Shown piece after piece: positions 10,509-42,216 of a stretch of 51,768 nt of DNA (positions are counted from its first letter, which is position 1; each line of letters starts with the position of its first letter). A model generated the notes under the pieces. It had not been told where the DNA came from. It was given only the letters and a program-made list of their open reading frames with translations, and searched no databases. Source of the stretch: Lysobacterales bacterium (GTDB lineage Bacteria; Pseudomonadota; Gammaproteobacteria; Xanthomonadales; S139-57). The stretch is taken from positions 1 to 51,768 of the forward strand of contig WFUE01000130.1 in assembly GCA_015485125.1 (NCBI GenBank). Reading direction: 5' to 3'. A program made the translations under genes and the position numbers.

Positions 10509-10525
10509 GGTTGAGGGTTCTCCTG

Positions 10526-11194
10526 ATGCAAATGGTGATTGAAGATGTATTGGGGCCAGAGCAACTGGCGCTGGCCCGGGAAATGCTGCAACGCGCGCCC
10601 TTTCAGGACGGCACGCTGACCGCCGGCGACTGGGCGGCCCGGGTAAAGCACAACCAGGAAGTGCCCACGGATGCCCAAATGGTACAGCAGTTGAACAACC
10701 TGATCATGAACCCGCTGGTGCGACATCCGCGCTTTCAGGCCGCCGTGCTGCCCCAGCGCATCGCCGCACCCATCTACGCCCGCTACGAAGCAGGCATGGA
10801 ATACGGCTTTCATGTGGACGACCCCATCATGGGCGGGCCACAAAAATACCGTACCGATATTTCCTTTACCCTGTTTCTCAGCGCGCCGGAAGAATATGAA
10901 GGTGGCGAACTGGAGATTGCCGGCGAGTTCGGCACCCTGCAACACAAGCTGCCGGCCGGGCACGCAGTCATCTACCCGTCCTCCAGCCTGCACCGGGTAC
11001 GGCCGGTGACCGCCGGCCAGCGGCTGGTGGCCATCAGCTGGATCCAGAGCCTGATTCGCGAACCGGCCCGGCGGCAGGTACTGTTCCAGATGAATCAGGC
11101 GCGGGAAAAACTGATGGCGCTGGAGGCCACTGACGAGGCCATGCAACTGGATACCGCCTACGCCAATCTGTTTCGCATGTGGGCCGAGCCCTGA
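10526..11194 (+). CDS. Fe(II)/2-oxoglutarate-dependent PKHD-type hydroxylase (PiuC/YbiX-like)
   Basis: It carries the HxD...H facial triad (FHVDDP ... SSSLHRV) and C-terminal WIQSLIR. I chose the start at ATG 10526, 8 nt after GAGGG. Confidence 0.8.
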   Translation: MQMVIEDVLGPEQLALAREMLQRAPFQDGTLTAGDWAARVKHNQEVPTDAQMVQQLNNLIMNPLVRHPRFQAAVLPQRIAAPIYARYEAGMEYGFHVDDPIMGGPQKYRTDISFTLFLSAPEEYEGGELEIAGEFGTLQHKLPAGHAVIYPSSSLHRVRPVTAGQRLVAISWIQSLIREPARRQVLFQMNQAREKLMALEATDEAMQLDTAYANLFRMWAEP

Positions 11195-11206
11195 GCGCCA
11201 GAAAAG

Positions 11207-11236
11207 AAAAAAGCCCGGCGATGCGGGCTTTTTTCA
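11207..11236. terminator. Bidirectional rho-independent terminator
   Basis: aaaaaagcccg-gcgatg-cgggctttttt is a GC stem flanked by an A-run and a T-run. It lies between the convergent genes ending at 11194 (+) and 11254 (-). Confidence 0.8.
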
Positions 11237-11253: not shown

Positions 11254-11493
11254 TCAGCGCTGGGAACCGTGCTCCTCGTGGGCGATTTCCATCACTTTCA
11301 TCGCCAGGTCACGGTATTTTTCCGCATAGCCCTGCAGGGGGTGGCCGTCCTGTGCGGCATAGTACTCCACCGGCTGCACACCATTTTCGTGTTCATATTC
11401 CATGAACTTTTTCTGCATTGCCAGCATTTCCTGGATCATTTCTTGTTTCGTTGCCATGAGCTTTGATCTCCGGGTCATTGACGTTTTCGCCAT
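11254..11493 (-). CDS. Hypothetical small protein (67-79 aa)
   Basis: This ORF is the last gene before the terminator. An internal ATG at 11457 (MATKQEM) has a GGAG about 10 nt upstream and may be the true start. Confidence 0.45.
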   Translation of the reverse strand: MAKTSMTRRSKLMATKQEMIQEMLAMQKKFMEYEHENGVQPVEYYAAQDGHPLQGYAEKYRDLAMKVMEIAHEEHGSQR

Positions 11494-11575
11494 GGTAGTG
11501 CAGGGGCCGGAACCGCTCCATATCCCAATGGATAAAGAGACAGAAGCGCCTCTATTACTGTCGGTCAGGCAAGCA

Positions 11576-12244
11576 TCAGGTATTGATGGAAGCTATGCCC
11601 TTGTGGGGTACAAACACGCCCAGGCCCAGCTTCTGCCAGTCGCCCAGCCCGTGGGTCTGCACCCGGATGGATTCGTCCGGCTTGAGGTCGGCCAGCATCA
11701 ACCTGCGGGTGAAGATGGGCCCTGACGGCCCCTGCACGAATTCGGTCTTGCCGCACAGGGCCTTTTTCACCGGCACATCCATCTCCGCCAGCGCCGCGAC
11801 CATGCGCTGCAAAAACTGTTCTTCACTTTCCGCCTCCTCACCGGGCACATGGCGGGAAAACACCACCGCGTAAGGGTTGATCTCCCGCTCGTGCGCCTTG
11901 CCGATGCGCATTTCACGGCCGCCAATCTGCAACTGCTGACCGGCCAGCGCCTGCACATCATCCAGCCGTTCCCGGGGCACGCGCAATTCCAGGCGGGAGC
12001 GGCGCGAGAGCAGAATCTCACCCTGTTCCTCATCCGGGCGTTCCCAGCCATTCTGGCTGGCGGCACCATAGATCAGGTGCAGGGCGGCCTGCGGTTCCTG
12101 CTCGAACCAGGGCAGCGCCCGGCAGATTTCCGCCGAAAGCTCGGCGGCATGATCCAGGGGCACGGCCCGGCACTGCAACTGGAACAGTACATCCACCACC
12201 GGCGCCTGTTCCGCCTTCTTTTCTTCCTCTTCCTGCCAGAACAT
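11576..12244 (-). CDS. Solo Cas6/Cmx6-like RAMP protein (putative RNA-binding protein or endoribonuclease)
   Basis: The C-terminal glycine-rich loop GLGDWQKLGLGVFVPH fits the Cas6 GhGxxxxxGhG hallmark. The N-terminal VDVLFQLQCRAVPLDHA and the central RLELRVPRE...LAGQQLQIGG..MRIG match my recollection of the Cas6/Cmx6 (type I-MYXAN) consensus. I trimmed the start to MFWQ (ATG at 12244), 1 nt after the upstream stop. Confidence 0.6.
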   Translation of the reverse strand: MFWQEEEEKKAEQAPVVDVLFQLQCRAVPLDHAAELSAEICRALPWFEQEPQAALHLIYGAASQNGWERPDEEQGEILLSRRSRLELRVPRERLDDVQALAGQQLQIGGREMRIGKAHEREINPYAVVFSRHVPGEEAESEEQFLQRMVAALAEMDVPVKKALCGKTEFVQGPSGPIFTRRLMLADLKPDESIRVQTHGLGDWQKLGLGVFVPHKGIASINT

Positions 12245-12245: not shown

Positions 12246-12449
12246 TCAGTCACCAAAACCGGGGATGAGATTAAAGGCGTTTTCCAGTTGCATTTCCCAG
12301 TTGTCCGGGGTGTCCTCGAAGGGTGGCTTCACATCCATTTGCAGTTGCATGGCACCTTCCTGCGCCTTCTGCCGGATCAGCTGCTGCAGGCCCTTGAAGG
12401 TTTCAATCTGTCGGTTCTGCATCAGCAATTCACTCAACCAGATGGTCAT
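12246..12449 (-). CDS. Hypothetical 67-aa Gln/Glu-rich protein
   Basis: The ATG at 12449 is preceded by GGAGAG with 5-nt spacing. Its stop lies 1 nt before the Cas6-like start. I recognised no family. Confidence 0.5.
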   Translation of the reverse strand: MTIWLSELLMQNRQIETFKGLQQLIRQKAQEGAMQLQMDVKPPFEDTPDNWEMQLENAFNLIPGFGD

Positions 12450-12504: not shown

Positions 12505-13386
12505 TCAGGCCGCTGCCGGTTGCGCGGGGTAGCGATCAAAGAACCGCGCCCGGTACATCAGCCGGCCGGCTTGCGGATCATCGCGAAAGCCCTTGCGGCC
12601 ATGCAGCACATTATTGCAGATCAGCCCTTCGCCGGCTTTCAGCCTGTAGTGATAGATGGGGATGGTTTCTCCCTGCAGCAAGTCCATCAGTGCCGCGCGC
12701 GCTGCGCGATGCAGGGGTTCGTCCTTCCAGATCACATTGTGCTTGCGGATGGTGAAGCGCATATGCAGCTGGCCGTGATCGTCCAGCGAGAATACAGGGC
12801 CACAGCGCGGTTCTTCTCCACCCTCTTCCCGATTGGGCGGGATGCAGAGCATGTCCGGCGCCATCAACGCGCGGATGTAGTCCGGGTTTTCATCCCGCAG
12901 ATGAATATAGAGCAGCTCCGGGTCCATGAGAAAATTTTCCCCGCCTTCCGCGGCCGGGCGCACACAGTGCAGCACCATGCCGCGAATCCACTCCTCCGGG
13001 CGGTTGTAATAACCGTCGGTATGCCAGTTGATGGGCTTGTCGGTGTAGGGAATGTAGCGTTCGCGCTTGCCACTGGGATCACAGCTCAAGGCGGTAATGC
13101 CGCTGGGGTCGCTGCACAGATGGTAATCCAGCCGGGTCAGGCCGAAGTGCGCGGCCAGCTGGCGAACCAGTGTCCGGTCTTCGCCATCGTCGTCCAGAAA
13201 ACGGTAGATGGCCATGTTGCAGCGTTGCAGCCGGTGGGCGATGGCCTCCAGCGCCGCCGGTTCCGGATTGGCCGCCTGCGGAATTTCCACCAGCAACGCG
13301 CTCGCGTCAGCCGGCACCTGTGCCAGCTTCCACGCCCGCCAGCGCCGGTAGTCGTCTTCGTGCGCCAGGGAAAAGGGTTGCGCCAT
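12505..13386 (-). CDS. TauD/TfdA-family Fe(II)/2-oxoglutarate dioxygenase
   Basis: WHTDGYY (HxD) and a distal NNVLHGRKGF (H..R) match the TauD/TfdA facial triad and 2OG-binding Arg pattern. The start codon overlaps the response-regulator stop (TGATG). Confidence 0.7.
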   Translation of the reverse strand: MAQPFSLAHEDDYRRWRAWKLAQVPADASALLVEIPQAANPEPAALEAIAHRLQRCNMAIYRFLDDDGEDRTLVRQLAAHFGLTRLDYHLCSDPSGITALSCDPSGKRERYIPYTDKPINWHTDGYYNRPEEWIRGMVLHCVRPAAEGGENFLMDPELLYIHLRDENPDYIRALMAPDMLCIPPNREEGGEEPRCGPVFSLDDHGQLHMRFTIRKHNVIWKDEPLHRAARAALMDLLQGETIPIYHYRLKAGEGLICNNVLHGRKGFRDDPQAGRLMYRARFFDRYPAQPAAA

Positions 13387-14054
13387 CAGCCTTCGTTGCG
13401 ATTGGCGCGCAGCCCCTGCTCGACGGCGATCACGGCCGCTTCCACCCGCGAGTGCACATCCAGCTTGCGCAGAATGGCTTTCACATGCAGCTTGACGGTA
13501 CCGTCGGAAATGCCCAGGTTGCGGGCAATGACCTTGTTGCTCTGCCCTTCAGCCAGCAGGGAGAGGATTTCCAGCTCTCGCGGGGTGAGGTTGGCAAAGG
13601 GGCTGGGGATGGGCGGAATGACGCCGTCGTCCTGCACCACCCGGGCCAGTACCGGGGCCAGATCGGGCGAGACTTCGGTCTTGCCCTGCATGATGTTGCG
13701 CAAGGCCGTGACCAGTGCGTCCGGGTCCATGTCCTTGAGCAGATAGCCTTGTGCGCCGGAGCGCAGGGATTCCACCAGATCCCGTTCGTCCGAGCTGGTG
13801 GTCAGCATCACCACCGGCATTTCCAGGCCCTGCTTGCGCAGCTCCCGCAGCACACTGATACCACTCATTTCCGGCATGCGCATGTCCAGCAGAATGATGT
13901 CCGGCTGGTGTTCCCTGGCCATCTTGATGCCTTCACGACCACCGCTCTGGGATTCCAGTACTTCGATGCCCCGTTGCTTGAGCAGTTTGGCCAACCCGAG
14001 TCGAAACAGGGTGTGGTCATCGATCATCAACACCTTCAGCTCACTCATATTCAC
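13386..14054 (-). CDS. NarL/FixJ (LuxR-type HTH) response regulator
   Basis: The receiver domain has VLMIDDH and IILLDMRMPEMSG (phospho-Asp). The C-terminal GerE/LuxR HTH reads LTPRELEILSLLAEGQSNKVIARNLGISDGTVKLHVKAILRKL. Confidence 0.9.
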   Translation of the reverse strand: MNMSELKVLMIDDHTLFRLGLAKLLKQRGIEVLESQSGGREGIKMAREHQPDIILLDMRMPEMSGISVLRELRKQGLEMPVVMLTTSSDERDLVESLRSGAQGYLLKDMDPDALVTALRNIMQGKTEVSPDLAPVLARVVQDDGVIPPIPSPFANLTPRELEILSLLAEGQSNKVIARNLGISDGTVKLHVKAILRKLDVHSRVEAAVIAVEQGLRANRNEG

Positions 14055-14072
14055 CTCTCTTGGTTTCCCGCG

Positions 14073-15404
14073 CTATATGGTTGTCTTTCGCCCGGCATCG
14101 GGGTCATTGTATTCGTCATGCTCGAAATCGAGAATAATCCGCGTACCTTCATCCGGCTCGCTTTCAATCCGTAGTGTACCACCCAGCTTGCTGGCGCGTT
14201 CCTGCATGATTTTCATGCCGAAATGCTCGGAGAAATCATCCATTTCCCGAAAACGTATGCCCACGCCATCGTCCTCGATCATCATGTGAATATGGCCGGC
14301 GGCATCGGAACGCATCAAAATGCGTACCATGTTGGCCTGCGCATGCTTGCGGATATTGCTCAGTGCTTCCTGGGCAATACGGTACATCTGGATTTCCTTC
14401 TCCCGGGGCAACAGCACCGGATGCCATTCCTTCTGCAGAAAAACCTGAATGCCGTTGATGGTGTGGAATCGATCCAGCAGCTCCTGAATGGCGGAAACGA
14501 TATTGCGTTTGTGGCTGGCGCCGCGAAAATGGGCGATCAGCTCGCGCAGTTCCTGGTTGGCGGTTTCAATGCTTTCCTCGATGCGCTCCATTTCCTGCCA
14601 GATGCCCGGCTCGTCTCCAATTTGCAGGGTCTGGTCCAGCACACGGATCTGAAAACGCAGGCTGGCGATGCTCTGGGCCAGTGAATCATGCAGCTCATGC
14701 GCCAGTTGCAGGCGTTCTTCCTGAATCACCTTCTGCATGCGGATGTCCATGATACGGGCGTTTTCCACCCCGATGGCCAGATGGCGGGTCACGCCTTCCA
14801 GCAAGTCATTCAGGTTGCGGTCTTCTTCCACCGAGCCCTTGAGCACGAACAGGTTGAACACACCCAAGGCCTTGCCCCGCACTTTCAGCGGGATGCACAT
14901 CATGCTGTAGTCCGCGCCACGGCTTTCGTTCAGAACCTGATCCAGCAGTTGCGCATCATCCACAATCTGGATTTTCTCCGAACGCAGGGCCGGGTCGGTC
15001 AGCGCCCGGCGCAGCGGTTCAGCCCGCTGGCCCATCAGTCTTTCCTCGCGGATGCCGGATGCGGCGGCCACACGCAGTTTTTCCTCGTGGTCCACCAGCC
15101 AGACCAGGCCGGCATCGGCCTGGGCCACGTTGCGCAGAATATGCAGGGAGCGCGTGAGCAAATCATCCAGATCACGAAAATCCATCGCCCGTGCCGCCAC
15201 TTCATAGCGGATATTCAGCGCATGGCCTTTCTTCAGCCGCTCCTGGGTATCCCGCATGCGGTCGGCAACGAGATTCATTTCTCCCGCGATGGGCTGCAAC
15301 AGCGGATCCCCAGTCAGCAGCGTGGCCGAGGCAAAGTCGTTGGCGGCCAGCTTTTCCAGCCAGCGCCGCATCATTTCCAGCTGTTGTTCGCAGGTTTCCG
15401 GCAT
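14073..15404 (-). CDS. Soluble GAF-domain sensor histidine kinase (HisKA_3/NarX-type)
   Basis: No TM segments are apparent. After a central GAF-like region come the H-box LAHELHDSLAQ, the N-box EALSNIRKHAQA, and the G-boxes DDGVGI and HFGMKIMQERA. Confidence 0.85.
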   Translation of the reverse strand: MPETCEQQLEMMRRWLEKLAANDFASATLLTGDPLLQPIAGEMNLVADRMRDTQERLKKGHALNIRYEVAARAMDFRDLDDLLTRSLHILRNVAQADAGLVWLVDHEEKLRVAAASGIREERLMGQRAEPLRRALTDPALRSEKIQIVDDAQLLDQVLNESRGADYSMMCIPLKVRGKALGVFNLFVLKGSVEEDRNLNDLLEGVTRHLAIGVENARIMDIRMQKVIQEERLQLAHELHDSLAQSIASLRFQIRVLDQTLQIGDEPGIWQEMERIEESIETANQELRELIAHFRGASHKRNIVSAIQELLDRFHTINGIQVFLQKEWHPVLLPREKEIQMYRIAQEALSNIRKHAQANMVRILMRSDAAGHIHMMIEDDGVGIRFREMDDFSEHFGMKIMQERASKLGGTLRIESEPDEGTRIILDFEHDEYNDPDAGRKTTI

Positions 15405-15410: not shown

Positions 15411-15731
15411 TTATTGCTCGGGTTTCACGGTACAGTTGGGGTCATTGGGATTGATGAAAACAAACTGCTTTTCATCGGAGCCTTCCAGTTCGACAAAATC
15501 CAGTACGGTTCCTTTCAGCAGGTCTTCACTGAAAGGAGAGATGACCACTTCCACCCCGTTGCTCTGGATGGTCTTGTCCTCTTCCGTAACATTGTCTTCG
15601 AAACCCATGGCATATTGAAAATTGCCCTGTTCGTCGCGCTTGACGGCGATGCGCAAGGGCATGCCCAATAAATTGCTCTCACGTGCCGCGGCCTGTATTT
15701 GCTCGGCGGCGGCCTTGCTGATTTCGATCAT
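15411..15731 (-). CDS. dsrR: DsrR (IscA/HesB-like protein lacking the three cluster cysteines)
   Basis: The protein shows the IscA-fold pattern (I.IS..AA..I, LRIAV...G..Y.M.F, and F.F.NPN) without the conserved Cys triad. It follows dsrN, and its start overlaps the dsrN stop (ATGA). Confidence 0.75.
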   Translation of the reverse strand: MIEISKAAAEQIQAAARESNLLGMPLRIAVKRDEQGNFQYAMGFEDNVTEEDKTIQSNGVEVVISPFSEDLLKGTVLDFVELEGSDEKQFVFINPNDPNCTVKPEQ

Positions 15732-17095
15732 CTGGTTTTCTCCCGTATAAATTGTACAAATGCGTCTACCCAGGGCGATGACTCAGTATGCCGCAAATGG
15801 GCATAGCCGGCGACGGTATTTTTGTACACCAGCCCGTCATGCACCCCATCCAGCCCCGTACCACGCCTTACTTGCCAGGCATAACGCTGGCCATTTTCCA
15901 CTGCCGGCAAGGGGCGCCAGGCGGAGTGATGAAATTCGTGCGCGTGCACGACTTCACTGCCTTGCCATGGCCATGGGTGATCTTGTGCCTGAATGCGCAT
16001 CAGCCCCCGACCCACCGGCCGGGCCTGCATTTCCACATCAAAGGGCAAGAATCCGGCCATGGGCCAGCGTTTGCCATCAACAACAATATGCTGGCCCAGA
16101 TACATCAAGCCACCGCATTCCGCGTAACAGGGCAACCCCTGCTGCAATGCGGCAAGGACGGCTTCTCGCATCCTGTGATTGGCACTGAGCGCCTCGGCCT
16201 TCATTTCAGGAAACCCACCGCCGATAAACAGCGCGTCCATTTCAGGCAAGGTGGTGTCATGAATGCTGTTGATGGAAACGATTTCCGCACCCAGTGTTTC
16301 AAACCGTTCCAGGTCATCGGGATAATAAAAGCCAAATGCCTGATCCTGAAATATTCCGAGACGAAAGGTTTGCTGCCTGGGTGCTGACGCCCCTTGTACT
16401 GGCGTTTCAAACGCATGCTGCGGTAATCGTTGCAGCCATGTATCCACATCCAGTTGTGTATCTAACTGAGTGGCCAGAAGCTGAAGGGTGTCTTCCGTGT
16501 TTTCCGCCTCATTGGCCGGTTGCAGCCCCAAATGCCGTTCCTGCACGGCCGCGTGCCTTTGACGTTCGATCACGCCCAGGATGGGCATGCTCGGATAACG
16601 CGCACAGACCTCCAGCAATCGCTGTCGATGACGGGGCCCGGCACATTGATTCAGCAATGCGCCCTGGAAGCGTAGCCCCGGTTCAAAAGTGGCATAGCCA
16701 TGCAACAAGGGGGCAATGCCACGGGTAAACCCGGTGACATCCACCACCAGCATCACGGGAATATCCAACAAACGAGCCAGGGCGGCATTGCTGTCCTTGC
16801 CGTCCACATCCTGACCATCAAACAGGCCGTGATTGCCCTCCACCAGCACGATATCGGCATCTGCGCTCTTGCGAAAAAACAGATCACGGATTTCGCTGGC
16901 GCTCTGGGTGTTGAAATCCAGATTGTAGGAAGGCCTGCCGCTGGCCTTGCGGTGCCAGATCGGATCGATATAGTCCGGCCCTTTCTTGAACATCTGCACG
17001 CGCAAGCCCCGATCTCGCAAGAGACGCGCCAAAGCCAGTGCAATCATGGTCTTGCCACTGGACTTGTGTGGTGCAGAGATCATCACGGCCTGCAT
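15728..17095 (-). CDS. dsrN: DsrN (cobyrinate a,c-diamide synthase-like siroheme amidase)
   Basis: N-terminal P-loop-like SAPHKSSGKT, a CobB/CbiA architecture with a C-terminal glutamine amidotransferase Cys (YAECGGLMYLG), and a position inside the dsr cluster. Confidence 0.85.
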   Translation of the reverse strand: MQAVMISAPHKSSGKTMIALALARLLRDRGLRVQMFKKGPDYIDPIWHRKASGRPSYNLDFNTQSASEIRDLFFRKSADADIVLVEGNHGLFDGQDVDGKDSNAALARLLDIPVMLVVDVTGFTRGIAPLLHGYATFEPGLRFQGALLNQCAGPRHRQRLLEVCARYPSMPILGVIERQRHAAVQERHLGLQPANEAENTEDTLQLLATQLDTQLDVDTWLQRLPQHAFETPVQGASAPRQQTFRLGIFQDQAFGFYYPDDLERFETLGAEIVSINSIHDTTLPEMDALFIGGGFPEMKAEALSANHRMREAVLAALQQGLPCYAECGGLMYLGQHIVVDGKRWPMAGFLPFDVEMQARPVGRGLMRIQAQDHPWPWQGSEVVHAHEFHHSAWRPLPAVENGQRYAWQVRRGTGLDGVHDGLVYKNTVAGYAHLRHTESSPWVDAFVQFIREKTR

Positions 17096-17195: not shown

Positions 17196-17230
17196 GAAAA
17201 AAAAGGCCCGGCTATGCCAGGCCTTTTTCA
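17196..17230 (-). terminator. Strong rho-independent terminator between dsrP and dsrN
   Basis: The minus strand reads aaaaaGGCCTGGcatagCCGGGCCttttttttt: a 7-bp GC stem with one G-U pair, followed by a 9-T run, 13 nt after the dsrP stop. Confidence 0.75.
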
Positions 17231-17242: not shown

Positions 17243-18463
17243 TCAGTCCTTGCTGTGAGCCGGGTCCACTACCTGGTCACTGAGGCTGGAAGGCAGCAGC
17301 CGCAACACCCGCATGCCCACAAAAGTGGCCAGTATGGTCAAGGCAAAGCCCCCCAGACCCAGCAGAAACTCGGGCAGTGAAGGATGATATTCAGCCACCA
17401 CACCGTCATAGAAACTGCTGGAGACAATCTTGTCGGCAAAGAGTGGCATGGGATAGGCCTGCCCGGCAATGATGGTGACATACATCTGCGCCAGACCACC
17501 AATAATCACCAGCAGCGCACCCAGCAGGATCAGGTTGCGGTTCCTGCCCAGTGTGGGGTGGTAGAAGATGGCCAGCGGCAACAGGGTGCCCAGGCCAATC
17601 TGGCCGATCCAGAATACGGCTGTGTAGATACCGCCACTGGTCAGAATCCAGATTTCATAATCATGCGCCTTGGCCCAGTATAGATTGGTCAGGTGATGAA
17701 TGATGGTCATCAACAATACCGCTCCTACAAAGGTTCCCAGCAGGTTCTTCAGACGGAACAGGATTTTCTCCCCCAGTTCGCGACCATCGAAACGGCAGGC
17801 CAGCTTGAGCATGACCATCTTGAAGGCGAGACCATAGCTGAAGGACATGATGATGAACATCGGGGCCAGCAGAGCACTGGCATAGGCGGTACGCGCCACG
17901 ATAAAACCAAAGATGGAACCGGTACCCGTGGTCAGGATCAGTCGCCAGACAAAGGCGGCAAAACCGGCCTTGGGGTAGTGCTTGTACATCTTGTAGTCCA
18001 TCATGAACCACAGATAGATACCGGTGAAGAACAGGAAACCGTTATAGAGGATCATGTTCCAGGCGAAGATGGACCGGAAGTTGTACTTCGTGGCCGCCAC
18101 GATCAACCGATCCGGACGCCCCAGATCCAGTACCAGAATCATCAGGCCACCCACCAGCAGGGCCATGGCGATCCAGGCGGACAAGCGCCCCAGGGGTTTG
18201 TACTGGTACTTGTCAAATACCGTACCAATGGAAGCGATATTCAGGGCACCGGAGGCGGCCACGATGAGAAAGACGGCAAAAACATGTGGCAACCCCCAGA
18301 CAATCTGGTTGCTCATGCCGGTGACCCAGTGACCCTCGTGCTCCATGTAAAGCGCGGCCAGTAGGCCCGCACCCAGCACGGCCGCTACAATAGCCAGAAA
18401 AGTGAGTACGGACTTGTTCAGTTCGATTTCAAGATATTCGACGGGATTTTTCATCTGGCTCAC
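17243..18463 (-). CDS. dsrP: DsrP (NrfD/PsrC-like integral membrane quinone-interacting subunit)
   Basis: A 406-aa polytopic membrane protein with about 10 hydrophobic helices, lying immediately after dsrO. Confidence 0.85.
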   Translation of the reverse strand: MSQMKNPVEYLEIELNKSVLTFLAIVAAVLGAGLLAALYMEHEGHWVTGMSNQIVWGLPHVFAVFLIVAASGALNIASIGTVFDKYQYKPLGRLSAWIAMALLVGGLMILVLDLGRPDRLIVAATKYNFRSIFAWNMILYNGFLFFTGIYLWFMMDYKMYKHYPKAGFAAFVWRLILTTGTGSIFGFIVARTAYASALLAPMFIIMSFSYGLAFKMVMLKLACRFDGRELGEKILFRLKNLLGTFVGAVLLMTIIHHLTNLYWAKAHDYEIWILTSGGIYTAVFWIGQIGLGTLLPLAIFYHPTLGRNRNLILLGALLVIIGGLAQMYVTIIAGQAYPMPLFADKIVSSSFYDGVVAEYHPSLPEFLLGLGGFALTILATFVGMRVLRLLPSSLSDQVVDPAHSKD

Positions 18464-18468
18464 AATCC

Positions 18469-19230
18469 TCAGTTGATGCCCTGATAGCGCACACCGGTGT
18501 TCAGCCCGAGATCCTCGCGAATCTGCTGACCACCCTCACGCAACAGTGCCTGGGAAATCTCGCTCTCGGGATCGTTGAGATCACCAAATATCATTGCCTG
18601 GTGTCCTTCCAGCTTGCAGGCTTCCACACAAGCCGGAATGCCCCCCTTGTCCACGGTGTATACGCACATGTTGCAGGATTCCACCGTTCCCTTGCCCCGG
18701 GGCGTATGCGGCAGTGGATTTTCGGTTTCTTCATGCAGGAAACTCCGTGCCTTGTAGGGGCAGGCCATCATGCAATAGCGACAACCGATACACAGATGGC
18801 GGTCCACCAGTACGATGCCATCCTCGCGCCGGAAAGAAGCGCCTGTCGGGCAAACATCCGCACAAGGCGGGTGTTCGCAATGCTGGCACATGATGGGGAA
18901 GGAACTGACCTTGCGGGTCAGCGGATCTTCCACCTTGAGTTTGCGAATCCACTGCGGGTCCTTGTCAGGACGTCCATGGGTTTCGATGCCATGCTTGTTG
19001 TGGCATGCGGTAACACACGCGTCGCACTCTGTGGTGCATTTGCGCGTATCAATGAGGATGCCCCAGCGATTCTTGTCGGATATTCGCTGATCATCCGGCT
19101 TGGCCTTGACTTCATGCAGCACCAGACCGGGAAGAATGGTCATGGAGGCGATCACGCTGACCGAGCCGCCCAGAAAAGACCGGCGCTCCGGTTGTGCGGG
19201 CTGGTTACAATCGCAGGATTTGCAACTCAT
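18469..19230 (-). CDS. dsrO: DsrO (Tat-exported 4x[4Fe-4S] ferredoxin-like subunit)
   Basis: Twin-arginine signal ERRSFLGGS and multiple CxxCxxCxxxCP-type clusters (CQHCEHPPCADVCP, CIGCRYCMMACP). The start overlaps the dsrJ stop. Confidence 0.9.
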   Translation of the reverse strand: MSCKSCDCNQPAQPERRSFLGGSVSVIASMTILPGLVLHEVKAKPDDQRISDKNRWGILIDTRKCTTECDACVTACHNKHGIETHGRPDKDPQWIRKLKVEDPLTRKVSSFPIMCQHCEHPPCADVCPTGASFRREDGIVLVDRHLCIGCRYCMMACPYKARSFLHEETENPLPHTPRGKGTVESCNMCVYTVDKGGIPACVEACKLEGHQAMIFGDLNDPESEISQALLREGGQQIREDLGLNTGVRYQGIN

Positions 19231-19670
19231 TGGCGAGCCTCCATCAAGGTATTGCGAATGGTGTCTTCCGAAAGCCCTTGCCGCAGCATCACAGGATGGC
19301 GAGCCTGTTCATAGGCCTCCTCCGGTTTATCGGCATGGCATTGGAAACAGTCAATCTTCACGGCTGCATAGGTGTGACAGGAATTACAGAAGTGTTTTTC
19401 CGTTTTCACGGAAACCCACTCACCCTTCTCGTCCTTGGTAGCATGGCAGTTGATGCATTCCACCAGGCTGAACTGCGGGTTGCGATAGCCCTCGTGCACG
19501 GTTTCGTCCCGCTGGTGCAGGATGTATTTCATATGATTTTTCCGCATTTCATCCGTGGGTCGCACGCAGGATTCACCCTTGCGTGCTTCCGGAATCTGCG
19601 GCAATACACCTGACCAGGCTGCCAAGGGCAGCAACAGGCCAATCAGCAATGCAATCAGCCCTTGTCGCAT
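19227..19670 (-). CDS. dsrJ: DsrJ (periplasmic triheme cytochrome c)
   Basis: Three CxxCH motifs (CINCH, CNSCH, CFQCH) follow the signal/anchor MRQGLIALLIGLLLPLAAWSG. I trimmed the start to the ATG at 19670, 1 nt after the dsrL stop. Confidence 0.9.
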   Translation of the reverse strand: MRQGLIALLIGLLLPLAAWSGVLPQIPEARKGESCVRPTDEMRKNHMKYILHQRDETVHEGYRNPQFSLVECINCHATKDEKGEWVSVKTEKHFCNSCHTYAAVKIDCFQCHADKPEEAYEQARHPVMLRQGLSEDTIRNTLMEARQ

Positions 19671-19671
19671 C

Positions 19672-21612
19672 TTAGTGATCTCCCATGCCCATGTCGATGT
19701 AGCCGGTGGGGCAGACATCCGCACAGATGTGACAACCAATACAACGTGTATAGTCGGTAGCCACGTAACGGCCCGTAGTGGACTCGTTTTTGGGCACGCG
19801 GTAGACCGCATCCTGCGGGCAGTAGATCACGCAGTTGTCACACTCGAAGCACAGACCACAGCTCATGCAACGCTCGGCCTCGGCCACGGCCTTTTCTTCT
19901 TCCAGACCCTTGACCCGCTCCTCGAAATGACCCAGTACATGGTCGGAATCCGGCACATCGGTCTCGCGCAGGTTGCGTGGCTCTTCCGGGAAGTGACCCA
20001 GGAACAGGTGGTCGGCAGAAATGATTTCCGCTTCCGAACGGTCGTCGAAATTGTGGATGGCGAACTTCTGTTCGGAAGTGCCCCATACATAATCCGGCTG
20101 ATAATCATCCGGATCCAAACCGGCTTCGTGCAGCTTCTCCATCAGGTTGAAGTGGTGTACATCCACCTTCGGGCGCTTGTGGAATTCCTTGCCGTTAAGG
20201 AATTCATCCACGGTATCCGCCACCACGGAACCCTGACCAATGGCCGTGGTCAGCAGGTGCGGACGCACGATGTCACCGGCCACGAAGTGCTTGGCACGCC
20301 CGGGCACGCAGTAGAACTTGTCGGCGTCCATCAGGCCTCGACCATTGTCAAAGTCTTCCAGGCCCTTGAGGTCACCGGTCTGGCCAATGGCCGCCACGAT
20401 CACATCGCACTCGATTTCAAACTCGGTACCTTCGCGGGCCACCGGGCGACCATCGACCATGTCACACTCGGCCATCTTCAGGGCCACGGCACGACCTTCG
20501 TCATTGAGGATGACTTCCAGCGGCATCACGCTGCACTTGATGTCCACCCCTTCGCGCAGTGCATCTTCCACTTCCTCTTCGGAAGCGGTCATCTCGTCCT
20601 GCGGGAACAGGGAGGTCAGGGTGACGGTCGCCGGACGACGGTCCAGGCCATCCTCATGCACGGCCTTGCCGGCAATCACATCTTCCATGGGCGCCGCACC
20701 ATCGGCGGTGCCCAGGCGACGGGAAACGGACACCACGTCGATGGAGGTATCACCACCACCCACGCAAACCACTTTCTCGGGCACATATTTCAGCTTGCCC
20801 TGGTTGAAGCGTTCCAGCATGCCCACACCGGTCACGCAGTTGGGCGTGCCTTCCCAGCCGGGTACCGGCAGGCCGCGACCCGTCCAGCAGCCGATGGCCC
20901 AGATAATGGCATCGTAGTCTTTTTCCAGCTCCTCGACGCTGACATCCTCGCCCACGCGCACACCGGTACGCACTTCGATGTCACCCATGTCGAGAATCCG
21001 CTGGATTTCATGATCCAGCACATCCCGTGGTGTCCGATAGCCGGGGATACCGTAACGCATCATGCCACCCAGCTCTTCCTGGGCGTCAAAGATGGTGGAG
21101 GCATGGCCTTTCTTGCGCAGCTGGTAGGCTGCGGACATGCCAGCCGGGCCGCCACCGATAATGGCCACTTTCTTTCCGGACAATGCCGCCGGTGCCTGGA
21201 ACTTGTAGCCTTTTTCGAAGGCGGTATCACCGATGAACTGTTCCACGGAATTGATGCCGACGAAGTCATCCACCACATTGCGGTTACAACCTTCCTGACA
21301 GGGTGCCGGGCAGACACGACCCATCATGGAGGGGAAGGGGTTGGCCGTGGTGGAGCGCAAGAAGGCATATTCGTGCTTGTCCACGTCAGCAGGCGGCTTC
21401 TCGATGCCACGGACGATCTGCAACCAGCCACGAATGTCCTCGCCGGAAGGACAACTGCCCTGACAAGGCGGGGTACGGTGCACATATGTCGGGCACTTGT
21501 GCGATGTATCCTGGACAAAGATCTTCTTGGTCAGATCATTCCACTCGTGTTCGCCATCCTCAAATCTTCTAAAGGTATGGCTTTTCTTCATGTCTTCAGC
21601 TGAGGTAGACAT
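19672..21612 (-). CDS. dsrL: DsrL (NAD(P)H-dependent iron-sulfur flavoprotein, GltD-like)
   Basis: N-terminal Fe-S Cys motifs, the dinucleotide fold VAIIGGGPAGMSAAY, a second Rossmann fold VVCVGGGDTSID, and a C-terminal 2x[4Fe-4S] ferredoxin domain (CMSCGLCFECDNCVIYCP, CIGCHICADVCP). Confidence 0.9.
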   Translation of the reverse strand: MSTSAEDMKKSHTFRRFEDGEHEWNDLTKKIFVQDTSHKCPTYVHRTPPCQGSCPSGEDIRGWLQIVRGIEKPPADVDKHEYAFLRSTTANPFPSMMGRVCPAPCQEGCNRNVVDDFVGINSVEQFIGDTAFEKGYKFQAPAALSGKKVAIIGGGPAGMSAAYQLRKKGHASTIFDAQEELGGMMRYGIPGYRTPRDVLDHEIQRILDMGDIEVRTGVRVGEDVSVEELEKDYDAIIWAIGCWTGRGLPVPGWEGTPNCVTGVGMLERFNQGKLKYVPEKVVCVGGGDTSIDVVSVSRRLGTADGAAPMEDVIAGKAVHEDGLDRRPATVTLTSLFPQDEMTASEEEVEDALREGVDIKCSVMPLEVILNDEGRAVALKMAECDMVDGRPVAREGTEFEIECDVIVAAIGQTGDLKGLEDFDNGRGLMDADKFYCVPGRAKHFVAGDIVRPHLLTTAIGQGSVVADTVDEFLNGKEFHKRPKVDVHHFNLMEKLHEAGLDPDDYQPDYVWGTSEQKFAIHNFDDRSEAEIISADHLFLGHFPEEPRNLRETDVPDSDHVLGHFEERVKGLEEEKAVAEAERCMSCGLCFECDNCVIYCPQDAVYRVPKNESTTGRYVATDYTRCIGCHICADVCPTGYIDMGMGDH

Positions 21613-21656
21613 CGCGCCTCTCCTAATTCAATTAAATTTCACCGAACCAGTACGAT

Positions 21657-23147
21657 TTATTCGTGCTGGTCAAAAACCAGAGCATCCCCAACCAGTTGGT
21701 GCAGGCTCAGAATGCTGTCCATCTCGAATCCGTAATACGGCATGACCTTGGTGAACTGGCTCTTGCAGATCGCGCAGATGGCCACCAGGTGATCCACGCC
21801 GTAGTTGTCATGCACATGCTTGAGTGCCTCCATCCGCGGCAGGGCACCCTTGACCCGCAGTTCCATCAGGTCATCGGTCAGCAGGCCGCCGCCACCGCCG
21901 CAACAGAAGGTGCTTTCGCAAATGGTTTCCCGCGGCATGTCGTGGTAGTTGTTGACCACCGACTTGAGAATGGCCCGAGGAATCTTGAACTGGCCACCCG
22001 GCTCGTTGCCCATGCGTGAGCCCCGTGCCACATTGCAGGAATCATGGAAGGTCACATTGAGATGATCATTGGCGGAAGGATCCAGCTTCAATTGCCCTTT
22101 CTGAATGGCATCCCAGGTCACTTCACAAATGTGCTGCGGCACCGGGTAATTGGGGTCGAGAAAATCAAAGGGCCCCGCCAGGGTATTGAGGAAGCTGTAG
22201 GCCACCCGCCAGGCATGGCCACACTCGCCGAACACGATACGCTTGACACCCAATTCCAGTGCCGCCTTGCGGATGCGCAGGGCCAGGCGTTGCATGTTCT
22301 CGTAACTGCCGATGAACATGCCGAAGTTGGCCGCCTCGCTGGCGAAGGAACTCATGGTCCAGCTGATGCCCAGCTGGTGGAAGACCTTGCCATAACCAAT
22401 CAGGCCGTCGATATGCGGCTCGGCAAAGAAGTCGGCGGACGGGGTGATCAACAATACATCAGCGCCCTTCTCATCCAGCGGATAGCGCACGGGCACGCCG
22501 ATATCCTCTTCGACCTCCTCTTCCAGATCCAGCAGCGTATCCTTCAGCGCTGGCTGAGGCAGACCCAGGTTGTTACCCAGCGTCTGCGCCTTGTGGATGA
22601 TCTCGTTGCAGTACTTCTGCCCCACGCCGACAGAGTCCAGAATCTCCCGGGCAGCCATGGAAATCTCTGCGGTATCGATACCATAAGGGCAAAATACAGA
22701 GCAGCGACGACACTGGGAGCATTGGTGGAAATAGCTGTACCACTCGTCCAGCACTTCCTTGTTCAGATCCACCGCGCCAACCAGTTTCGGGAAATACTTG
22801 CCGGCAAAAGTAAAGTAGCGACGATAGACCTTGCGCAGCAGATCCTGACGGGCCACCGGCATGTTTTTCGGGTCCGCCGTGCCCAGGAAGTAATGACACT
22901 TGTCGGTACAGGCACCGCATTTCACACAGGCATCGAGAAAGACCTGGAAGCTGCGATACTTGCCCAGCAGATCGCCCATCTTGTCCAGCGCGGCCTGCTC
23001 CCAGTTTTCCACCAGCTCGCCGGGGTAGCCCAGCGGTTGCTGCCATTGTTCCTTGGAAACAAACGGTTGGCTGTGCGCCATCGCCCCTTCCTGAAGTTCG
23101 GGGATTTCGATATGTTCCTTCAGCTCGGGTACTTCAAAATCTGCCAC
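21657..23147 (-). CDS. dsrK: DsrK (HdrD-like CCG-domain iron-sulfur catalytic subunit)
   Basis: Ferredoxin-like CVKCGACTDKC and CSQCRRCSVFCP, plus CCG-domain signatures (FCCGGGGG, CAICKSQ). Confidence 0.9.
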   Translation of the reverse strand: MADFEVPELKEHIEIPELQEGAMAHSQPFVSKEQWQQPLGYPGELVENWEQAALDKMGDLLGKYRSFQVFLDACVKCGACTDKCHYFLGTADPKNMPVARQDLLRKVYRRYFTFAGKYFPKLVGAVDLNKEVLDEWYSYFHQCSQCRRCSVFCPYGIDTAEISMAAREILDSVGVGQKYCNEIIHKAQTLGNNLGLPQPALKDTLLDLEEEVEEDIGVPVRYPLDEKGADVLLITPSADFFAEPHIDGLIGYGKVFHQLGISWTMSSFASEAANFGMFIGSYENMQRLALRIRKAALELGVKRIVFGECGHAWRVAYSFLNTLAGPFDFLDPNYPVPQHICEVTWDAIQKGQLKLDPSANDHLNVTFHDSCNVARGSRMGNEPGGQFKIPRAILKSVVNNYHDMPRETICESTFCCGGGGGLLTDDLMELRVKGALPRMEALKHVHDNYGVDHLVAICAICKSQFTKVMPYYGFEMDSILSLHQLVGDALVFDQHE

Positions 23148-23173
23148 GATACATCTCCAAAATCAGGTCAGGG

Positions 23174-23920
23174 TCAGGATGACTTGGTGGGTTCGTTGGG
23201 CAATTCAGCCGCCCATGGGGACAAATGGCGCTTTTCACGCGGGTTGTCCACCTGATTGCGGGTCGGACTGAAGAACACCCCTGGCGCATGCAACAGCTTG
23301 CTGATGGGAAATACCATCATCAACAGCGATACCATGGTGATGTGCGCGATCAGTATGGGATCAGCCGGGAATGGTTGAAAATCGAGACGCATCAGGCCCA
23401 TGAAAAAGGCCTTCACCGCGACGATATCAGTATGAGAAACAAAACTCATGCCAATGCCCGTCAAGGTGATACCCAACAGCAGCGCCAGCATCAGATGATC
23501 ACTGGGTGCTGAAATGTAGCGAATGCGCTCAACAAAAATCCGGCGTGCCCACAGGCCAAGCAGACCAATCAGCATGGCAAAGGCACCGTAACGGCCAAAG
23601 GGCTGAATGATCTCCACCCACCACCAGACCGGATCGGTGAAATAGCGCAGATGGCGGGCCAGCACGACAAACAGCGCCATGTGAAACATCCAGCCAAAGA
23701 TCCAGATCCACTTGTTGGACTTGAACAGACTGTTGAACAGAACCACTTCAGAGGCCATTCGCAATACCACGCCACCCTGGGTCACCGGTGCCGGTGTGGT
23801 GGGGATCTTCAACGGGGCTGGTGTCTTCGCATAGGTATAGATCTTTCTGCCCAATCCCACCAGCAAGATGGCGCTGGCCGAATAGAACATGACAGTCATA
23901 ATGACAGTCAGGATACTCAT
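23174..23920 (-). CDS. dsrM: DsrM (NarI-like dihaem cytochrome b membrane subunit)
   Basis: Five hydrophobic helices with conserved His residues. I trimmed the start to MSILTVIMTV (ATG at 23920, preceded by AGAGGA); the tracked ORF runs antisense-free back into dsrC. Confidence 0.85.
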   Translation of the reverse strand: MSILTVIMTVMFYSASAILLVGLGRKIYTYAKTPAPLKIPTTPAPVTQGGVVLRMASEVVLFNSLFKSNKWIWIFGWMFHMALFVVLARHLRYFTDPVWWWVEIIQPFGRYGAFAMLIGLLGLWARRIFVERIRYISAPSDHLMLALLLGITLTGIGMSFVSHTDIVAVKAFFMGLMRLDFQPFPADPILIAHITMVSLLMMVFPISKLLHAPGVFFSPTRNQVDNPREKRHLSPWAAELPNEPTKSS

Positions 23921-23953
23921 ACAAACATCCTCTGAAATCGTTCGATAAACACT

Positions 23954-23981
23954 TCGGGCCCGACCCGGTGGCCGGGCCCGA
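23954..23981 (-). other. Intercistronic stem-loop just downstream of dsrC
   Basis: A 9-bp perfect GC stem, TCGGGCCCG/CGGGCCCGA, with a 10-nt loop lies 6 nt after the dsrC stop. There is no long U-tract. Confidence 0.55.
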
Positions 23982-23987
23982 CAGTTA

Positions 23988-24320
23988 TTACACGCAGCCG
24001 GTCGGCTTGGGCAGACCCGCGTACTTACAAGCCTGCTTGGCAGGACCATACGGGAACAGCTGGTACAGGTACTTGCTGTTACCCTTGTCCTTGCCCAGCT
24101 TCTTGCCAATGGCCTTGGTCAGCACGCGCACGGCGGGAGCAATCTGATACTCCTCGTAGTATTCACGCAGGAAGTTGATCACTTCCCAGTGCGCGTCGGT
24201 CAGTTCGCAATCATCCGCGGCGGCCATGGCGGCACCCACTTCCGGAGTCCAGTCGTTCAGGTTGGCCAGGTAGCCTTCTTCATCAGTTTCGTAGGTTTTG
24301 CCGTTTACTTCGATGCTCAT
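23988..24320 (-). CDS. dsrC: DsrC (sulfur-carrier/substrate protein of DsrAB)
   Basis: A 110-aa TusE/DsrC-fold protein ending in the diagnostic two-cysteine arm CKYAGLPKPTGCV. Confidence 0.95.
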   Translation of the reverse strand: MSIEVNGKTYETDEEGYLANLNDWTPEVGAAMAAADDCELTDAHWEVINFLREYYEEYQIAPAVRVLTKAIGKKLGKDKGNSKYLYQLFPYGPAKQACKYAGLPKPTGCV

Positions 24321-24367
24321 GGTATTTCTCCTCGATAGATGCGTCGCATCCAGTTAAACATTCACGC

Positions 24368-24676
24368 TTACAGCCAGGCGTTGACCTGGTCATACTGCGT
24401 GGTCAAATCAACGAAGCCGTCAAAATCCACCGATTCGACGCCTTCTATCAGAGCCTGGTCTGCCAGGCCTCTTGCCTTGAGGTCCGGCTCCAGTACAAAC
24501 ACCTTCCGGTCTGCCAGGGCAGCCTTGACCAGATCGGCCTTGGCACCACCGGCCAGCGCGGCGTAGACGCCGTCTTCGATCAGCAGAATGGCTGCACCGG
24601 CATCACTGCGTTGCACGCAGGATTCCAGCGACGCCTTCTCGTAAGGTGATTTGTTGACAGTATGCAAAATGGCCAT
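24368..24676 (-). CDS. dsrH: DsrH (sulfur relay protein)
   Basis: A 102-aa DsrH/TusB-like protein (MAILHTVNKSP ... GVYAAL), placed after dsrF. Confidence 0.85.
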   Translation of the reverse strand: MAILHTVNKSPYEKASLESCVQRSDAGAAILLIEDGVYAALAGGAKADLVKAALADRKVFVLEPDLKARGLADQALIEGVESVDFDGFVDLTTQYDQVNAWL

Positions 24677-24689
24677 GTTCTTGTTCTCC

Positions 24690-25106
24690 TCAGAAGCTCA
24701 GCAGGACGTCTTGCTCTTCGATGAGCTTCTTGACCTCATCGCGGCTGACCAGACGAATGGAATCCTTCTCGGCCCAGTCGTCATCCTCGTCTTCCCAGGT
24801 CAGATGCTGCAGATCGTCCAGCGTCAGGCCACGCTCTTCCAGGGACTCCTTTTCCACATACAACTTGGAAACATCGTAGTCACCCAGTGCCGCATAGGCA
24901 GGCGAGAAATTCTTCATGCCCACGCCTTCGGTGTTCTGGCCCTTGGTGAGCTGGAACACGCCGTCATCAATGAACAACAGGCTGACATCCTGCTCAAGGG
25001 CGGCGGCAATCAAAACGACTTCCAGCGACTCCTGGGCATAGATGGTGCCGTAGGGCGCCCGGCGATTGACGAACATGAACTTCTTGCCGTCGTTTTCTTC
25101 ACTCAT
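24690..25106 (-). CDS. dsrF: DsrF (sulfur relay protein)
   Basis: A DsrF/TusC-like protein (KKFMFVNRRAPYG). I chose the start at ATG 25106, which has GGGAGA 7 nt upstream; the tracked ORF begins at a TTG at 25121. Confidence 0.85.
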   Translation of the reverse strand: MSEENDGKKFMFVNRRAPYGTIYAQESLEVVLIAAALEQDVSLLFIDDGVFQLTKGQNTEGVGMKNFSPAYAALGDYDVSKLYVEKESLEERGLTLDDLQHLTWEDEDDDWAEKDSIRLVSRDEVKKLIEEQDVLLSF

Positions 25107-25135
25107 GGATCGTTCTCCCAATCAAAAAACGTGGC

Positions 25136-25528
25136 TTAGTCGCCAAACTCAACCAGACGATCGGCCTGAATACAGGCTTCGACCAATTGCCCCAGGCCGG
25201 TGATGTGAAACACTTCGGCGATGTTGTTCACATCCTTGCCCCAGCGTTGCGCTTCACCTTCATCCAGCAAACCCCGGCGTTGTGCGGCAGCCACACAGAC
25301 GGACAGGTCCAGATCATGTTCCTTGCCCAGTGCCACCCACTTCTCGGTGATGTTGCGATCGTCCTGTGGCGGCACGCCCAGGCGGGTCGCGTTGTTCACA
25401 CCGTCGTGATAGAAGAACACACGGATGATTTCGTGGCCCTTGTCCAGCGCGGCCTTGCAGAAATTGTAGGCCGTGTCGGACGCCTGATGGTTGTAGGGCC
25501 CTTCGTTGATCATGATTGCGTATTTCAT
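25136..25528 (-). CDS. dsrE: DsrE (sulfur relay protein, active-site Cys subunit)
   Basis: A 130-aa DsrE/TusD-like protein (MKYAIMINEGPY ... LSVCVAAAQRRG). Confidence 0.9.
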   Translation of the reverse strand: MKYAIMINEGPYNHQASDTAYNFCKAALDKGHEIIRVFFYHDGVNNATRLGVPPQDDRNITEKWVALGKEHDLDLSVCVAAAQRRGLLDEGEAQRWGKDVNNIAEVFHITGLGQLVEACIQADRLVEFGD

Positions 25529-25551
25529 GAACCAGTTTTCCTCGTCAAAGT

Positions 25552-25576
25552 CGGCAGCAGGGGTTGCCTGCTGCCG
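25552..25576 (-). other. Intercistronic stem-loop between dsrB and dsrE
   Basis: A perfect 10-bp stem, CGGCAGCAGG/CCTGCTGCCG, with a 5-nt loop lies 6 nt after the dsrB stop. The dsrE RBS (GAGGAAA) follows it on the minus strand. Confidence 0.6.
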
Positions 25577-25582
25577 CAGGCA

Positions 25583-26653: not shown

Positions 26654-26725
26654 GATTGTCTCCAGAAAGCTTGATTAATAATGACCGGCGCCGGGCGCAC
26701 TGCCCGGCACCAAAACAGATCTGAA

Positions 26726-42125: not shown

Positions 42126-42216
42126 GCCGCCATCTTTCCTGCTGCCAAAAACCGGCAGTGTATGCATGGGCGGCCCGTGGGGGAATAGTCCATTCGGTAT
42201 TGATGTGTGATGACAA

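Follow-up and report, generated by a model that had tools for sequence, protein, structure and literature searches.

A CRISPR-independent Cas6 clade in the accessory cluster of the oxidative dsr genes of sulfur-oxidising Gammaproteobacteria

A Cas6-family gene beside the dsr operon

The DNA analysed here, a stretch of 51.8 kb from a Lysobacterales bacterium (contig WFUE01000130.1; hereafter the window), carries an oxidative dsr operon and, further along the same strand, a gene encoding a Cas6-like protein. The operon, dsrABEFHCMKLJOP, occupies positions 17243-27988 of the minus strand (dsrA ATG at 27988). It is followed by dsrN and dsrR (15411-17095, minus strand), which overlap, encode a CobB/CobQ-like amidase of 455 aa and an IscA-like protein of 106 aa, and are packed tightly with the genes downstream. 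These encode, in order and on the same strand, a GAF/HisKA_3 sensor histidine kinase recognised by Pfam (14073-15404) and its partner, a NarL/GerE-type response regulator (13386-14054; PF00072 and PF00196), a TauD/TfdA-family 2-oxoglutarate (2OG) dioxygenase-like protein of 293 aa (12505-13386; PF02668, E=8e-18), a 67-aa protein without a known family, here called small67 (12246-12449), the Cas6-like protein (11576-12244; ATG at 12244, stop at 11576-11578) and a second small protein (11254-11493). The Cas6-like gene lies 4.8 kb after dsrN, and a single nucleotide separates its ATG from the stop codon of small67. Convergent to the cluster is a gene for a YbiX-like, PKHD-type Fe(II)/2OG hydroxylase (10511-11194, plus strand; PF13640 and PF18331; NF003974, 247 bits).

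The Cas6-like protein has 222 aa, begins with MFWQEEEE and ends in GLGDWQKLGLGVFVPHKGIASINT. It is matched over its full length by PF09559 (Cas6), with E=4.9e-58 and 196.7 bits against a threshold of 26.7, scores 130 bits with the NCBIfam model TIGR02807 (type I-MYXAN Cas6/Cmx6, cas6_cmx6; cutoff 98.85) and is recognised by several PADLOC Cas6 models (best E=3.6e-56). An AlphaFold2 (AF2) model obtained with 43 homologues as input (predicted local distance difference test, pLDDT, 88.1; predicted template modelling score, pTM, 0.85) displays two tandem ferredoxin-like domains of the RNA recognition motif/repeat-associated mysterious protein (RRM/RAMP) type. Its top Foldseek matches in the PDB are Cas6 chains, namely 8fcu_B and 8fcj_B from the type I-B Cascade of a CRISPR-associated transposon (CAST) (E~1e-16, template modelling score, TM, 0.77-0.80), followed by P. 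furiosus Cas6 and Cse3/Cas6e. The chain 8fcj_B is also reached by sequence, with E=1.3e-5 from the single protein and E=2.9e-22 from a profile of its clade; weak matches of that profile to caspase-1 (E~0.07) were treated as chance. The Cas6 glycine-rich loop, GhGxxxxxGhG, is present in the C-terminal segment GLGDWQKLGLGVFVPH (residues 199-214) as G199-L-G201-DWQKL-G207-L-G209. The product of the window gene is a bona fide Cas6-fold protein of the PF09559 family. The original prediction had described a Cas6/Cmx6-like RAMP protein with this C-terminal loop, and had proposed Cas6-family profile searches and a comparison with Cas6 structures as checks; both were carried out and uphold the description.

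No CRISPR array was detected in the window by Tandem Repeats Finder (TRF), by Rfam (gathering threshold, 0 matches) or by a direct-repeat scan, and no cas8b/devT, cas7, cas5, cas3, cas1 or cas2 gene neighbours the Cas6-like gene in it. Pfam annotation, which covered positions 1576-22244 through the identical contig L001 and the remaining large open reading frames (ORFs) directly, returned no further cas genes in the window, only dsr, regulatory and housekeeping genes. The earlier statement that arrays, cas1/cas2, Cascade and Cas3 genes are absent from the 51.8 kb is borne out by these searches. Arrays were likewise not found near the related loci described below, within 974 kb.

CRISPR-like k-mer chains in six of those loci proved to be plain tandem repeats with periods of ~55, 68 and 108-109 nt. 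Near-perfect intergenic tandem repeats with periods of 109, 108 and 55 nt occur on Parabeggiatoa and Thiotrichaceae contigs (L015 3032-3722, L005 1-441, L006 1-275), and a naive k-mer scan misreads them as CRISPR arrays. The partner proteins of the cluster gave no match with the PADLOC cas and defence models. The convergent PKHD hydroxylase matches the PADLOC model '2OG, CRISPR-associated' (E=4e-15), which reflects a generic 2OG-Fe(II) domain and no cas link.

Conservation of the dsr linkage and of the protein family

Relatives of the Cas6-like protein number 644 among 90%-identity clusters and 821 among 50%-identity representatives, 147 of the latter with E<1e-30. The named carriers are sulfur oxidisers (Chromatiales, Chromatiaceae, Halochromatium, Thioploca, Parabeggiatoa, Thiothrix, Thiolinea, Thiotrichaceae and Methylococcales), among them also a 'Lysobacterales' metagenome-assembled genome (MAG) with 92% identity. 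Loci of Halochromatium, Chromatiaceae, Thioploca, Thiothrix and Thiolinea were checked by hand, and the neighbours of the Cas6-like gene were mapped by tblastn in 80 further metagenome loci. A non-CRISPR neighbourhood is shared by about 100 related loci of 32-92% identity, from many lineages and MAGs.

The consensus arrangement has dsrKMCHFEBA on one strand and, on the other, genes for the TauD-like protein, small67, in some loci a 238-aa protein (U238), the Cas6-like protein, a DsrC-like protein and a small protein, with the PKHD hydroxylase convergent to them. Counted over loci with enough flank (for dsrA linkage, at least 4.5 kb upstream), small67 precedes the Cas6-like gene in 79 of 88 loci and is its most constant partner. 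A DsrC-like gene follows the Cas6-like gene in 54 of 68 loci, and dsrA lies upstream of the cluster in 29 of 38, divergently in 28 of them. Also recurrent are the TauD-like gene upstream (38/59 loci), U238 (27/59), the PKHD hydroxylase within 6 kb downstream (23/46) and the downstream small protein (22/57, Thiothrix and Methylococcales among them).

Within this arrangement the lineages differ in detail. Halochromatium and a Chromatiaceae MAG have the Cas6-like cluster divergent from dsrA, with an optional TauD-like gene followed by genes for a 62-63-aa protein, a 238-239-aa protein, the Cas6-like protein and a DsrC-like protein. The Parabeggiatoa/Thioploca loci have small67 and the Cas6-like gene only, and in those of Thiothrix/Thiolinea, which have no small67, the TauD-like and Cas6-like genes are separated by a gene for an aminotransferase. 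The four most divergent representatives examined (32-40% identity) are all in dsr or DsrC-like settings. In the methylococcal P0173 (38% identity) dsrA is divergent from genes for a 62-aa protein, the Cas6-like protein and a 68-aa protein; in P0269 (32% identity) it is divergent from TauD, DUF6967, Cas6-like, 182-aa protein and ThiF genes; and in P0227 and P0266, the most divergent group, the order is DUF6967, Cas6-like, DsrC-like and rhodanese.

The link of the Cas6-like gene to dsr is strongly supported by this synteny, and its status as a domesticated rather than a displaced gene is supported. Within PF09559 it falls in a large clade independent of CRISPR, which is part of a conserved accessory cluster of the oxidative dsr genes, involved in stored-sulfur oxidation, in sulfur-oxidising Gammaproteobacteria. 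That the gene is a conserved, dsr-linked, non-CRISPR derivative of Cas6 can be stated with high confidence, and a component of CRISPR systems has apparently been given a new use in core energy metabolism. The original prediction of a domesticated Cas6 acting on a cellular RNA therefore stands in its first half, given the same non-CRISPR neighbourhood in ~100 loci and no array in 974 kb; its second half, the action on RNA, is suggested by the fold.

Conservation within the clade was computed over 150 representatives clustered at 50% identity. Conserved are the N-terminus M-[FY]-W-[QE]-[ED], including W3, followed by D18 and F21, the stretches P29-x-D31-H32 and S63-x-N65-G66-W67-x-R69-P70, the residues S80-R-R82, R88, E141, K161-x-x-C164-G165, R180 and Q196, and the glycine-rich loop with P213-H214-K215. 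The loop glycines are retained in 139-144 of 151 representatives and His32 in 135 of 151, and C164 is substituted in ~28% of representatives. The window protein carries all clade signatures (M[FY]W[QE][ED], PxDH, S-x-N-G-W-x-R-P and P-H-K). The clade is under strong purifying selection on a defined set of residues. The divergent group linked to DUF6967 and rhodanese is devoid of the NGW insertion and may be basal to the clade.

In order to set the clade against CRISPR-linked members of the subfamily, cyanobacterial proteins were gathered with the 8fcj_B sequence; one of their loci was checked (L101) and has the order TniQ-Cas6-DevT-?-Cas5, with a type III module in the vicinity. Identity between dsr-linked and CRISPR-linked proteins averages 25% (maximum 30%), against a mean of 36% within the dsr-linked set. 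The CRISPR-linked proteins lack the N-terminal tail, the NGWxRP insertion, CGK and PHK, have D-N in place of D-H and possess an insertion of their own, GTPQRRQL.

Among the partner proteins, small67 has an invariant DxxPxxxDTPxxWE core in its alignment. No Pfam, NCBIfam or PADLOC family matched it, a word-index protein search returned only the query itself, and single-sequence AF2 predictions were unstable over the five models, with a best Foldseek E of 4.5. The most divergent members of the clade have in its place, just upstream of the Cas6-like gene, a small gene for DUF6967 (PF22295, E=3.6e-20; L097 7783-8001, L099 1748-1987, L100 603-824). DUF6967 and small67 have an 'EG-xRF-x-x-D-V' stretch in common and are positional analogues, homology not being demonstrable. 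The DsrC/TusE-family protein encoded beside the Cas6-like gene has neither of the arm cysteines, and its C-terminus is [R/K]-K-G-G-Y in 62 of the 64 copies located downstream, unlike the operon DsrC, which ends in PTGCV. Examples are found at L007 10777-11136, L009 10864-11202, L011 10935-11279, L099 2665-2997 and L100 1538-1870, with about 60 more loci. The window has no such KGGY gene, its only dsrC being that of the operon. The Gly-Gly-Tyr end, near ThiF or rhodanese genes in some loci, hints at carrier-protein chemistry.

In the window the cluster is shifted to the distal end of the dsr array and bracketed by terminator-like hairpins. RNAfold places one such hairpin, with a T-run, after dsrP in the P-N spacer (17197-17228, minus strand) and a second after the last small gene, between the convergent genes (11206-11234, minus strand). 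The second marks the end of the unit and the first may separate dsrA-P from dsrN and the genes down to the Cas6-like gene, suggesting that dsrN, dsrR, the kinase, the regulator, TauD, small67, Cas6 and the small gene form a separate or attenuated transcription unit. The downstream small protein has 79 aa from its first ATG and 67 aa according to the gene caller; its homologues lie downstream of Cas6-like or DsrC-like genes, and it probably starts at ATG 11457 with 67 aa, as they do. The TauD-like protein is only weakly similar to TmpA and to gamma-butyrobetaine and trimethyllysine dioxygenases. The kinase/regulator pair (13386-15404, minus strand), located between dsrR and the TauD-like gene, is translationally coupled on both sides, with the regulator stop and the TauD-like start overlapping by 1 nt; it is not next to the cluster in the other lineages examined.

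Other features of the window and loci were recorded in passing. An adjacent pair of nucleotidyltransferase (PF01909) and HEPN (PF05168) genes at ~1579-2369 on the plus strand (L001 19876-20666) looks like an MNT-HEPN toxin-antitoxin module. An apparent LysC-LysA-type fusion is encoded by a single minus-strand ORF of 868 aa (39564-42167), in which aspartokinase-like domains (AA_kinase and ACT) are joined to Orn/DAP decarboxylase domains. Upstream of a gene for a MoxR-like AAA+ protein, a 50-nt direct repeat is present twice in intergenic DNA (50940-50989 and 51050-51099), the copies being 82% identical and 110 nt apart. In a Thioploca/Parabeggiatoa contig, a DnaB helicase gene contains two inteins with LAGLIDADG domains (L013 / L014 17400-20687).

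Candidate function and competing explanations

Retention of the glycine-rich loop and of Arg, Lys and His positions suggests that the Cas6-like protein binds RNA and perhaps cleaves it. It would recognise one specific structured cellular RNA, which it might also cut, and, jointly with the small partner protein, would serve as a post-transcriptional factor expressed along with the dsr genes. That the protein works on RNA in this manner, together with small67 and co-expressed with dsr, is proposed tentatively and falls somewhat short of an even chance. The best joint explanation, a dsr-linked non-CRISPR Cas6 clade acting as a post-transcriptional RNA factor, is given an even chance. In the most complete form of the model, a Cas6 endoribonuclease of a type I-B-like CRISPR system would have become a permanent member of the oxidative dsr regulon, where with its small partner it would read one cellular RNA and control the expression or stoichiometry of sulfur oxidation; so detailed a scenario is doubtful.

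Several observations weigh against a role on RNA. The clade is acidic to neutral, with an isoelectric point (pI) of 5.3 for the window protein and a family median of 6.1, against 9.3 for the CAST Cas6. His32 falls at the strand-to-helix-1 junction, the region of the catalytic His in Cas6e/Cas6f; its aligned position is Asn in the CRISPR-linked members of the subfamily, so that, on this alignment, it would not be equated with a known catalytic residue there. Searches of the cluster, the dsrA leader and the dsr intercistronic spacers turned up neither a conserved RNA hairpin nor a repeat-like target. The DsrC-like, rhodanese and ThiF neighbours point equally to sulfur or protein chemistry. As to the linkage itself, the 80 metagenome loci are the best matches to the clade's own profile, so that the description 'near-universal' is valid for this clade only.

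The main alternative takes up these points and sees a Cas6 fold that no longer works on RNA but serves as a protein-binding or sulfur-trafficking part, handling for example the KGGY arm of the DsrC-like protein, possibly with participation of the two 2OG dioxygenases. It accounts for the acidity of the clade, for the cysteine-less DsrC-like protein next door with its nearly constant KGGY end, for the rhodanese or ThiF-like genes beside divergent members and for the lack of an RNA target in the palindrome census and dsr-spacer comparison described below. It also fits the conservation of C164, H32, H214, D31 and E141, which are not classic Cas6 residues. However, the clade retains the glycine-rich loop and numerous invariant Arg and Lys residues of the kind usual in RNA-binding RAMPs, C164 is replaced in more than a quarter of the representatives, and in the window, as in the Parabeggiatoa loci, no DsrC-like gene adjoins the Cas6-like one. 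We know of no precedent for a Cas6 fold acting on proteins. On balance a protein-handling role is possible, but rather unlikely.

When RNA targets were sought, one conserved palindrome emerged. Among 42 divergent spacers between dsrA and the TauD-like gene, k-mer analysis found CTATCCC in 21 (null maximum 9), the word being part of an 18-bp inverted repeat, CTATCCC-N4-GGGATAG. A covariance model of the inverted repeat (R1), run over all loci, finds it in most of them; it matches the window at 28161-28187, where the palindrome CTATCCC-TATC-GAGATAG (28166-28183, no strand assigned) lies ~185 nt upstream of the dsrA ATG. The pattern TATC[CT]C-N4-G[AG]G[AG]TA occurs 37 times in 922 kb, 30 times at 150-261 nt upstream of a dsrA start; it is found there in 30 of the 43 loci that include this start, and the other seven matches are on contigs without it. 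Examples in related loci are at L009 8484, L011 7940 and L017 7746. An imperfect copy on the minus strand, TATCC-ATTG-GGATA, is located at 11520-11537 (no strand assigned to the element) in the spacer between the Cas6-like gene and the small gene; it does not reach E<10 with model R1 and is possibly a second operator or promoter element. Its spacing differs by 2 nt. Related GGGATAT half-sites follow the Cas6-like gene in several lineages, before the same small gene or the DsrC-like gene, and these internal half-sites lie ~22-25 nt upstream of -10-like boxes.

If the inverted repeat were an RNA hairpin bound or cut by the Cas6-like protein, as a CRISPR repeat is by Cas6, its stem of 6-7 bp and loop of 4 nt would be of the size of a Cas6 substrate, and its near-exclusive location upstream of dsrA, as well as the related copies that closely follow the Cas6-like stop codon in several lineages, that of the window among them, would find an explanation. 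Such a hairpin predicts G-U wobbles on one constant strand. The variants GAGATA and GGGGTA would pair as G-U on one strand and leave C-A mismatches on the opposite one, but the favoured strand flips: GAGATA favours the dsrA-sense strand in nine loci and the opposite strand in the window, and GGGGTA favours the antisense strand, which argues for a DNA operator. The 7-2-7 layout, which we take to resemble the sites of NarL-type regulators, the position of the internal copies relative to -10-like boxes and the 2-nt spacing difference of the internal copy in the window also speak against a hairpin. As a Cas6 RNA target the palindrome was rejected, real and specific to the dsrA upstream region as it is, and the hairpin reading is improbable. 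The palindrome is probably a DNA operator of the dsr regulon, and a candidate master operator by its sequence and placement; a NarL-type regulator is encoded in the cluster of the window. The occurrence of the palindrome at dsrA and of related elements inside the cluster suggests co-regulation, and the Cas6-like cluster appears to share the dsr operator.

The remaining candidate targets fared no better. The original prediction had noted hairpins without common sequence in the dsr intercistronic spacers and had speculated on a tie between them and the Cas6-like protein. The observation was accurate, the hairpins of the A-B and B-E spacers of the window being unrelated GC-rich stems. The speculated tie finds no support, given that the dsr intercistronic spacers across loci have nothing in common except Shine-Dalgarno-like k-mers. 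A conserved element after the Cas6-like stop codon was considered and dismissed as heterogeneous, consisting of promoter-like boxes and generic terminators, and Rfam, run on the cluster at a relaxed threshold, gave terminator-driven noise only.

In gene order, small-protein size and the gap of 1 nt the two genes resemble type II toxin-antitoxin modules, so that small67, as the antitoxin encoded upstream, and the Cas6-like protein, as the RNase encoded downstream, could be read as a toxin-antitoxin-like or defence pair; yet the fixed chromosomal site beside dsr in distant lineages is unlike that of mobile, patchy toxin-antitoxin and defence genes, the partners have no PADLOC match, and Thiothrix and Thiolinea keep the Cas6-like gene without small67, making a pair or defence module of this kind very unlikely. 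The fixed context is equally adverse to a displaced cas6 working for a type I-B/I-MYXAN CRISPR locus in another part of the genome, a reading favoured by the passing of the TIGR02807 equivalog cutoff and largely refuted by dsr linkage down to 32% identity, by the absence of arrays in the 974 kb around the related loci, by insertions and motifs that the distant CRISPR-linked relatives do not have and by a phyletic spread that tracks sulfur oxidisers.

Relation to known systems and significance

The closest counterpart of the dsr-linked clade is the type I-B/I-MYXAN Cas6 (Cmx6), as represented by chain B of the cyanobacterial CAST structures 8FCJ and 8FCU, with which it shares the family, the double-RRM fold and the C-terminal glycine-rich loop. 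It differs from this basic protein in its acidic character, its low sequence identity (~25%), its additional acidic MFWQE tail, NGWxRP insertion, CGK and PHK, its DH instead of DN and its lack of GTPQRRQL; moreover, the window gene has no array, Cas8b/DevT, Cas7, Cas5 or TniQ nearby. With P. furiosus Cas6 (3PKM) and T. thermophilus Cse3/Cas6e (2Y8W) the RAMP fold is held in common at a Foldseek probability of 1.0, though with TM values of only 0.45-0.64. Unlike the canonical Cas6 endoribonucleases, the dsr-linked protein has no known repeat RNA as substrate, and His32 is a candidate catalytic residue only.

Within the dsr system, the position of the Cas6-like gene resembles that of the accessory and regulatory genes dsrN, dsrR and dsrS of Allochromatium vinosum, being likewise in a distal or upstream accessory zone and apparently co-regulated. 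In that organism DsrC has been proposed as a DNA-binding regulator. To our knowledge, the described dsrABEFHCMKLJOPNRS set contains no Cas6-like gene. Searches of open-access papers and bioRxiv for literature tying Cas6 to dsr, reverse Dsr (rDsr), DsrC or Allochromatium returned ordinary CRISPR inventory only. While the protein family is known, the clade appears to be undescribed, as do its conserved partners and the dsr link.

Exaptations of CRISPR components have been reviewed (PMC8730458) and comprise type IV systems, CASTs, Streptomyces I-E cas5-8 with a STAND NTPase and the haloarchaeal HRAMP, with no Cas6 in a metabolic locus among them. They resemble the case described here in having a Cas component outside adaptive immunity and no adaptation module, but consist of several effector subunits, mostly with guide RNA logic and in defence or mobile settings, whereas the window has a single Cas6 in a core energy-metabolism locus.

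One practical consequence concerns annotation. Hundreds of proteins of the clade are labelled 'type I-MYXAN CRISPR-associated Cas6/Cmx6' by the equivalog model, so that CRISPR counts for the genomes and MAGs of sulfur bacteria come out too high. The loci examined are free of CRISPR and cas neighbours, and this over-annotation in sulfur oxidisers is likely to be systematic.

CRISPR proteins that operate outside immunity are few, and most are whole effector modules in defence or mobile-element settings. In contrast, the protein described here is a single Cas6 that has become fixed in a core biogeochemical pathway of many sulfur oxidisers. The dsr system has long been suspected of being under post-transcriptional control, for which the Cas6-like gene offers a testable handle, with Thiothrix eikelboomii (ATCC 49788) as a culturable carrier. 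Were the proposed role to prove true, the clade would provide the first case of a Cas6 doing housekeeping work in energy metabolism, and dsr control would have a hitherto unrecognised post-transcriptional layer.

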